Of a stretch of 789 nucleotides of DNA, positions 1-789 are shown one piece after another. The stretch is from Escherichia coli (GTDB lineage Bacteria; Pseudomonadota; Gammaproteobacteria; Enterobacterales; Enterobacteriaceae). Position 1 is the first letter of the stretch. Every line of letters starts with the position of its first letter. The DNA lies in NCBI RefSeq assembly GCF_003334765.1, contig NZ_QOWT01000099.1. One strand, 5' to 3'. The position numbers were made by a program, and so were the translations under genes. The notes below the pieces were generated by a model, which ran no database searches, had not been told where the DNA came from, and saw only the letters and a list, made by a program, of their open reading frames with translations.

Positions 1-789
1 TGACAACGGCGACCTGGTGCGCATCAGCGGCCCGCGACAGACGCGGGAATACGGCTACAGCGCCACGGGCAGGCTGGAGAGTGTGCGCACCCTCGCACCA
101 GACCTGGACATCCGCATCCCGTATGCCACGGACCCGGCGGGCAACCGGCTGCCGGACCCGGAGCTGCACCCGGACAGTACACTCACAGTGTGGCCGGATA
201 ACCGCATCGCGGAGGATGCGCACTATGTCTACCGCCACGATGAATACGGCAGGCTGACGGAGAAGACGGACCGCATCCCGGCGGGTGTGATACGGACGGA
301 CGACGAGCGGACCCACCACTACCACTACGACAGCCAGCACCGCCTGGTGTTCTACACGCGGATACAGCATGGCGAGCCACTGGTCGAGAGCCGCTACCTC
401 TACGACCCGCTGGGACGGCGAATGGCAAAACGGGTCTGGCGGCGGGAGCGTGACCTGACGGGGTGGATGTCGCTGTCGCGTAAACCGGAGGTGACGTGGT
501 ATGGCTGGGACGGAGACAGGCTGACGACGGTGCAGACTGACACCACACGTATCCAGACGGTATACGAGCCGGGAAGCTTCACGCCGCTCATCCGGGTCGA
601 GACAGAGAACGGCGAGCGGGAAAAAGCGCAGCGGCGCAGCCTGGCAGAGACGCTCCAGCAGGAAGGGAGTGAGAACGGCCACGGCGTGGTGTTCCCGGCT
701 GAACTGGTGCGGCTGCTGGACAGGCTGGAGGAAGAAATCCGGGCAGACCGCGTGAGCAGTGAAAGCCGGGCGTGGCTTGCGCAGTGCGG
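1..789 (+). CDS. rhs: Rhs-family YD-repeat protein, internal fragment of the conserved core (partial at both ends; reading frame begins at nt 2, 262 complete codons to nt 787, no start or stop in the window)
   Basis: Seen in sequence: a single + strand frame (phase starting at nt 2) is open across the entire window. The translation contains five YD-repeat motifs: YGYSATGRL (50..76), [11 protein letters not shown] (224..256), YHYDSQHRL (320..346), YLYDPLGRR (395..421) and WYGWDGDRL (497..523). Codon usage is GC3-rich (ctg, ccg, cgg, acg, ggc dominate). Established knowledge: the translated peptide matches, from memory, the conserved core shared by E. coli RhsA/B/C/D; no alignment was possible here. 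I cannot tell from core sequence alone which paralog this is, so the symbol is given at family level only. The track omits this frame presumably because it has no in-window start or stop. Confidence 0.93.

Follow-up and report, generated by a model that had tools for sequence, protein, structure and literature searches.

The window, by which we mean the whole 789-nt stretch of Escherichia coli DNA analyzed here, lies inside the conserved core of an E. coli Rhs element that belongs to the RhsD/E subfamily. Frame +2 was the sole frame open throughout, with 262 codons, the first at nt 2 and the last full one ending at nt 787. Its translation matched positions 875-1136 of the NCBIfam profile NF041261, RHS element core protein (E = 1e-174, 583 bits), in agreement with the Rhs core identity claimed in an earlier note on this DNA. 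The cut-off of the profile is 2000 bits, and the window, being a fragment, scores under it. The full-length parent protein, RhsD, passes it with 2787.7 bits over profile positions 1-1261. In E. coli K-12, the window had two matches of 100% identity over 789 nt, one in rhsD (b0497; L002 20001-20789) and one in the 5'-truncated rhsE pseudogene (L001 20001-20789). These matches bear out the enterobacterial host that the earlier note had proposed. The features of the window are as follows.

Positions 1 to 789, plus strand: internal segment of an Rhs core ORF, corresponding to codons 872-1133 of E. coli K-12 RhsD (nt 2613-3401 of rhsD), with the same bases in the rhsE pseudogene.
Positions 2 to 607, plus strand: part of the YD-repeat beta-hairpin region of the Rhs shell, window residues 1-202, with strands in the AlphaFold2 model ending at residue 202.
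Positions 608 to 787, plus strand: helical segment with four helices predicted by AlphaFold2, window residues 203-262.

ORFs in other frames (≤121 amino acids, minus strand) were rejected as genes because the 262-codon frame, with its family match at 1e-174, overlies them; we regard them as a by-product of stop-poor, GC-rich DNA. A megablast search of 5426 complete E. coli genomes found the window in 3821, at a median of 3 places per genome, and the 100% matches were annotated as rhsD or "RHS element core protein."

The identity of the two K-12 copies extends past the window, as follows.

Locus positions 20001 to 20848 (L001 and L002): identical rhsD/rhsE tract of K-12, 848 nt long, which begins at window nt 1 and ends 59 nt beyond the 3' end of the window, so that the window lies wholly inside it.

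Because the copies are identical over these 848 nt, it cannot be told from the sequence whether rhsD or rhsE is the source of the window. The shared core of K-12 rhsD and rhsE is 1566 nt long with 95.8% identity, and all 65 mismatches were outside the tract. Beside it, the shared core had 4-11% mismatches per 100-nt bin (89-96% identity). The tract looks like the result of a recent gene conversion or recombination between the loci. We also found mosaic patterns among 12 alleles across strains and loci. When strain 94EC was compared with K-12 rhsD, three segments had 0/404, 29/848, and 53/315 mismatches. The rhsA, rhsB, and rhsC genes were 97-99% identical inside K-12 and approximately 92% identical to E. 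albertii rhsC.

RhsD contains a DUF6531 domain, many RHS repeats, an Rhs-associated core domain, and a DUF4329 tip (approximately residues 1292-1411). Its tandem YD repeats were detected by TIGR01643 in 6 stretches and by Pfam RHS_repeat as 8 domains at E ≤ 0.001; within the window, the RHS_repeat matches were weak only. The Rhs-associated core domain lies outside the window (TIGR03696 at residues 1181-1258 and PF03527 at residues 1155-1190), and DPMGL occurs at residue 1232 and again at residue 1254. An AlphaFold2 model of the window (mean pLDDT 82) had strands confined to residues 1-202 and predicted helices at residues 203-210, 214-221, 233-247, and 253-261. The best Foldseek matches of this model were Tse5 (8cp6_B; E = 5e-11), P. 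protegens RhsA (7q97_A), and Tse15. With phmmer, window residues 63-202 aligned with Tse5 residues 864-983 (E = 1e-9), and the alignment ended at residue 202. Residues 203-262 fell outside the sequence alignments with solved Rhs structures. The consensus of the helical segment, SLAEKLxQ...RLExELRxGxLSxxSxxWLxQ, was conserved in an alignment of 17 diverse relatives (A1). The segment is kept in relatives with identity as low as 33-40%, and many relatives from GC-rich hosts align with residues 3-200 alone. Solved Rhs effector shells are reported to enclose a variable C-terminal toxin (PMC8765631, PMC10684867, and PMC8636562). By analogy, the window would encode part of a shell that encloses a C-terminal toxin.

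A vgrG gene was directly upstream of full-length rhsE-locus alleles in E. coli 28RC1, 94EC, TW10828, and TUM1881. K-12 rhsD has no neighboring vgrG, and its PAAR_motif match was not significant (E = 0.28). The gene downstream of rhsD, ybbC, is annotated as YbbC/YhhH family. K-12 rhsE is a 5'-truncated remnant, and the same locus elsewhere (L087, L088, L092, and L094; positions 1-328) has a full-length Rhs core gene right behind vgrG. ISAs1-family (H-repeat) transposase genes are downstream of this full-length gene, as they are at K-12 rhsB and rhsC. Two proteins in the database (P0057 and P0064), which carry VgrG Pfam domains and are named VgrG, had 96-99% identity to approximately 70% of the window. 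They are probably fused or chimeric gene calls that span vgrG-rhs junctions.

By direct count, G+C made up 518 of the 789 nt of the window (65.65%). This is exactly the hand count of the earlier note, which was also exact for the full 60-nt lines: all thirteen were at 0.60-0.73, and the final 9 nt were at 0.78. In 120-nt windows along the stretch, G+C was 0.61-0.72. GC1, GC2, and GC3 in frame +2 were 0.679, 0.469, and 0.821, and the strong GC3 bias claimed before is therefore real. The coding strand has 283 G, 235 C, 173 A, and 98 T, which makes it strongly purine rich and T poor, and its AT skew along the window was 0.10-0.49.

As background, we used 130 kb of E. coli K-12 outside rhs elements, taken as 4849 overlapping 789-nt windows. 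Their G+C had a mean of 0.512 (sd, 0.047) and a maximum of 0.616, and none of the 4849 reached 0.6565. Flanking genes of at least 300 nt at two K-12 loci (n = 53) had a GC of 0.52 and a GC3 of 0.55-0.57, with a maximum GC3 of 0.73. Chance or artifact was rejected as the cause of the high G+C because no background window was as high. A GC-rich host was also rejected, because the host is E. coli. The earlier note had held that a host or flanking genes of about 65% G+C would remove the argument; the flanks are at 52%. Its description of a marked anomaly relative to the host therefore stands.

This composition belongs to the core of the gene. The rhsD core had a GC of 0.638 and a GC3 of 0.762 (0.69-0.84 along the core), whereas the tip had a GC of 0.358 and a GC3 of 0.177. 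A GC3 changepoint in rhsD came after codon 1240, just past the first DPMGL, and the downstream ybbC had a GC of 0.306. The changepoint trails the first DPxGL rather than the second, and the NCBIfam core profiles run to the second. Of the 16 cores examined, 15 have two DPxGL motifs 22 residues apart (residues 1232-1236 and 1254-1258 in rhsD), and E. albertii L010 has one. In an independent survey, rhsD ranked in the top 20 of K-12 for compositional anomaly (PMC2575891). A GC-rich core with an AT-rich tip is the classic composite from Hill's laboratory, summarized by Jackson et al. 2009 (PMC2935791), who also reported a composite for Serratia Rhs, with a GC-rich core of 67.7% and an AT-rich tip of 46.4%. 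Within the core, GC3 peaks over the window (0.75-0.84, compared with 0.68-0.77 in the remaining core). This peak is common to all subfamilies and to E. albertii and is therefore older than the K-12 rhsD/rhsE conversion.

The excess was then divided between amino acids and codons. Host coding GC was 0.531, the window protein recoded with the codon usage of the flanks came to 0.565, and the observed value was 0.656. Amino acid composition thus contributes 3.4 of the approximately 12.5 points of excess, about a quarter, and synonymous choice contributes about three quarters. The window had 13% Arg (host, 4.9%), and both its GC1 and its GC2 exceeded host values. Amino acid composition as the sole cause was rejected because it accounts for those 3.4 points out of approximately 12.5. 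The shares of four codons within their amino acids were as follows.

CGG (Arg): window, 44%; flanks, 10%; ribosomal and elongation factor genes, 1%.
ACG (Thr): window, 64%; flanks, 29%; ribosomal and elongation factor genes, 6%.
GAG (Glu): window, 67%; flanks, 29%; ribosomal and elongation factor genes, 29%.
AGG (Arg): window, 12%; flanks, 2%; ribosomal and elongation factor genes, 0%.

The codon adaptation index (CAI) of the window was 0.337, and that of the flanks was 0.403 (sd, 0.073). The comparison of codon usage with the host that the earlier note had called for therefore came out in its favor. Translational selection was excluded as the cause because the CAI is low, under the host mean, and because the window favors codons other than those optimal for translation, with enrichment of the rare CGG, AGG, and ACG.

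We then asked whether the high GC3 is maintained or decaying. We took eleven further E. coli loci of the rhsD/E subfamily together with rhsA, rhsB, and rhsC and codon-aligned 16 complete cores, including the two of E. albertii. All of the aligned clade I cores had a GC of 0.60-0.64 and a GC3 of 0.70-0.78. We used six outgroups to polarize the third-position sites with two alleles in ten cores of the rhsD/E type. By this parsimony polarization, with outgroups 17-23% diverged and alleles that are mosaic, the ten E. coli cores had 104 third-position changes from GC to AT (S>W) and 32 from AT to GC (W>S) (p = 4e-10). The codons of the window alone had 28 and 6, respectively. Seven alternative polarization schemes gave S>W/W>S ratios of 1.7 to 17. 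The equilibrium GC3 implied by the polarized changes was 0.55 (95% bootstrap interval, 0.46-0.64), the same as in the host and in contrast to the current 0.76-0.82. In rhsC orthologues since the split of E. coli and E. albertii, S>W and W>S changes numbered 23 and 3 on the E. coli branch and 31 and 8 on the E. albertii branch.

An AT-ward bias of recent changes is known in native genes. Our native control, 13 flanking genes in three strains only, had 49 S>W and 28 W>S changes at a GC3 of 0.607. The native per-site rates predict a ratio of approximately 4.5:1 for the core, and 3.25:1 was observed. The contrast in S>W ratio between native genes and core was borderline (Fisher p = 0.057), and the native genes too show an S>W excess. 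The high GC3 is not maintained but is eroding at host-like rates. Because the core is under the host substitution regime, its GC3 of 0.76-0.82 is not at equilibrium and was probably inherited from an earlier, GC-richer regime. The frequency of derived W>S alleles exceeded that of derived S>W alleles (p = 0.004), which could be polarization error or a weak GC-favoring bias. This frequency bias slows the net loss of GC but does not reverse it. A literature search found nothing specific on amelioration of Rhs.

We also examined homologues in other hosts, scanning one genome per bacterial species (GTDB). The GC3 of the homologous segment was compared with that of neighboring long ORFs at 45 loci with usable flanks in other hosts. 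Flank GC3 came from greedy nonoverlapping ORFs, which is crude, chiefly in GC-rich hosts, and only the broad pattern is used: the excess of segment over flanks ranged from -0.13 to +0.25, with E. coli rhsD as the extreme (+0.25) and other hosts reaching up to +0.20. In Trabulsiella odontotermitis, the segment is identical in at least four copies and has a GC3 of 0.653, with flanks at 0.61-0.67. The segment of Serratia silvae was at 0.58 (flanks, 0.60), and that of an Ignatzschineria metagenome-assembled genome was at 0.395 (flanks, 0.32). In the GC-rich hosts Acidovorax, Delftia, and Halomonas/Billgrantia, it was at 0.78-0.87. Neither the fold, the repeats, nor multicopy status forces a high GC3. 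A Citrobacter youngae rhs copy (L012 7445-11566) at the position equivalent to that of rhsA had a GC3 of 0.664, with flanks at 0.643. A second C. youngae copy (L013) had a GC3 of 0.817. Within this one genome, the two copies have either been resident for different lengths of time or had different histories.

Outside Escherichia, the closest relatives all came from Enterobacteriaceae of 50-57% G+C. No donor was found in the one-genome-per-species GTDB scan, in which relatives in GC-rich hosts had at most 39% identity. E. coli-type core sequences of 80-97% identity were also present under the labels Collinsella, Bacillota, Jeotgalibacillus, Acinetobacter baumannii, and Clostridium (L009, L017, and L035; proteins P0011 and P0054). 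Their presence there is probably due to contamination or misbinning.

Several observations bear on how long these elements have been resident. An E. albertii locus (L011) was syntenic with the K-12 rhsC locus (kdp genes, ybfA, and rhsC), with 92% identity over 9.3 kb. The rhsC cores of E. coli and E. albertii differed at 17% of four-fold sites, and the kdp flanks differed at 14-26%. Synteny and flank-like divergence together indicate that the ancestor shared by E. coli and E. albertii already had the rhsC element. In C. youngae, the gene order at the rhsA-equivalent site is aldB-yiaY-selBA-yibF, rhs, and yibH, and in Atlantibacter hermannii an rhs fragment (L036) adjoins yibF and yibH. The rhsD/E and rhsA/B/C subfamilies differed at 42% of four-fold sites. 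Clade I is older than E. coli according to Jackson et al. 2009 (PMC2935791).

The rhsD element is variable among strains. The ybbP/rhsD junction was present in 2866 of 5426 E. coli genomes, and in genomes without it, homology ended 6 nt past the ybbP stop codon. The interval between ybbP and mnmH in E. coli is a hotspot with three states, as follows.

L002 16965 to 24257: rhsD element, 7.3 kb (state 1).
L004 9802 to 14717: Hcp-toxin gene (tssD, 2004 nt) and four DUF2931 genes (state 2).
L005 9807 to 10509: spacer of approximately 0.7 kb that contains REP-like repeats and a gene annotated as a dinQ-like toxin (state 3).

We think that the G+C of the window is probably, for the most part, a synonymous legacy of a GC-richer regime, with an old entry into Escherichia, slow amelioration since then, and copies that recombine. 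The core would have been shaped in a donor genome by a substitution regime richer in GC, and nothing more exotic than a proteobacterium of 58-65% G+C would be needed. By the general relation of GC3 to genome G+C, such a donor would suffice. Entry into the Escherichia lineage would have been long ago, for at least rhsC before the split of E. coli and E. albertii. Slow drift to the host composition would have followed, while the copies still swapped segments by recombination. Two points here are inferences: that the earlier regime belonged to another host, and how old the transfer is. Amelioration would be slow enough for GC3 to go from approximately 0.85 to approximately 0.75 over a divergence like that between the subfamilies. 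Because the residence of rhsC is old, the legacy signal must have lasted long. The foreign origin suggested in the earlier note is thus supported, with the core losing GC3 at host-like per-site rates. It has to be qualified as an old acquisition for which the scan yielded no donor and in which about a quarter of the excess is amino acid composition.

Intense recombination might itself have produced this composition. GC-biased gene conversion among multicopy, recombining cores could have raised GC3 in enterobacteria and could now sustain it, without a foreign donor. An 848-nt identical rhsD/rhsE tract in a 92%-identical context, mosaic alleles, rhsA/B/C genes that are more alike within K-12 (97-99%) than they are to E. 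albertii rhsC (approximately 92%), the higher frequency of derived W>S alleles, and the failure to find a GC-rich donor are all consistent with this. However, the net flux is A/T-ward (104 versus 32, 23 versus 3, and 31 versus 8) at host-like per-site rates. T. odontotermitis has its identical-segment copies yet a host-like GC3, and the peak of GC3 at the window, which all subfamilies and E. albertii have, is older than the K-12 conversion. We consider it unlikely that conversion explains the anomaly in this way. A related reading is that GC-biased conversion, rather than a foreign legacy, made and partly sustains the GC of enterobacterial clade I cores, and that the window, as a fresh tract with a GC3 peak, is a hotspot of it. 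There is room for this because derived W>S alleles are at higher frequency and the scan yielded no donor, but it seems quite unlikely to us.

Selection for high G+C in the core is another candidate, acting for example through the YD repeats rich in Arg, Asp, Gly, and Tyr, properties of the mRNA or DNA, escape from silencing by H-NS, or a sharp boundary between GC-rich and AT-rich DNA for the swapping of toxin tips. Amino acid composition does raise GC, by about 3.4 of the 12.5 points, with its excess of Arg, and Serratia also joins a GC-rich core to an AT-rich tip (Jackson 2009, PMC2935791). Such constraint is very unlikely to be the main cause, given that three quarters of the excess is synonymous, GC3 is now eroding, and the CAI is under the host mean. 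Furthermore, homologues with the same fold and motif have a host-like or low GC3 in Trabulsiella (0.65), Serratia silvae (0.58), and Ignatzschineria (0.40). On the simplest reading of the classic argument, E. coli would have acquired the core horizontally, and recently, from a donor of approximately 65% G+C. This would account for the large anomaly and the foreign codon usage. It would also fit the distribution of the rhsD element, which only about half of the E. coli genomes carry and whose border, 6 nt past ybbP, is sharp. Even so, rhsC keeps its synteny in E. albertii, and its divergence there is in the range of that of its flanks. The two subfamilies are also separated by differences at 42% of four-fold sites, and near-identical sequence was absent from GC-rich hosts in the one-genome-per-species scan. 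Clade I relatives are also found in Salmonella, Citrobacter, and other Enterobacteriaceae (including those of Jackson 2009, PMC2935791). A recent acquisition is highly improbable.

The GC-rich core with its AT-rich tip and the inference of a foreign origin are already known; both date in the literature from the 1990s, and Jackson et al. 2009 returned to them. Our analysis adds that the signal is mostly synonymous, that it is eroding at host-like rates, and that the transfer would be old. It cautions against taking composition as evidence of recent transfer, and it sets up a clean test of amelioration versus biased gene conversion in a multicopy family.

Among known systems, the closest is K-12 RhsD/rhsE itself (Hill's RhsD/E subfamily; clade I of Jackson et al. 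2009), because the window is this gene, with zero differences. K-12 RhsD has in common with the element of the window a GC-rich core, an AT-rich tip, and a small downstream ORF (ybbC). The K-12 RhsA/B/C subfamily has the same architecture and is also GC raised (core GC, 0.62; GC3, 0.72-0.73), and its cores are also losing GC. However, it has 77% nucleotide identity to the subfamily of the window and a slightly lower GC3, and its rhsC is syntenic in E. albertii. The solved type VI secretion system (T6SS) Rhs effectors (Tse5, 8cp6; P. protegens RhsA, 7q97; Tse15, 8uxt; and the S. bongori Rhs core, 8qjb-d) have the same YD-repeat shell fold, with Foldseek E values of 5e-11 to 5e-7. Their sequence identity to the window is just 16-27%, and the sequence alignments with them do not cover its helical segment.

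In the model of Lawrence and Ochman, genomic islands are reportedly known by their atypical composition, which is followed by amelioration. Like the rhsD element, islands of this type are atypical in GC and codon usage, occupy a fixed site in some strains but not in others, and drift to host composition. Unlike the usual AT-rich islands, however, the rhsD anomaly is GC rich, it is a composite of GC-rich core and AT-rich tip with no integrase or tRNA border, and its residence is old.
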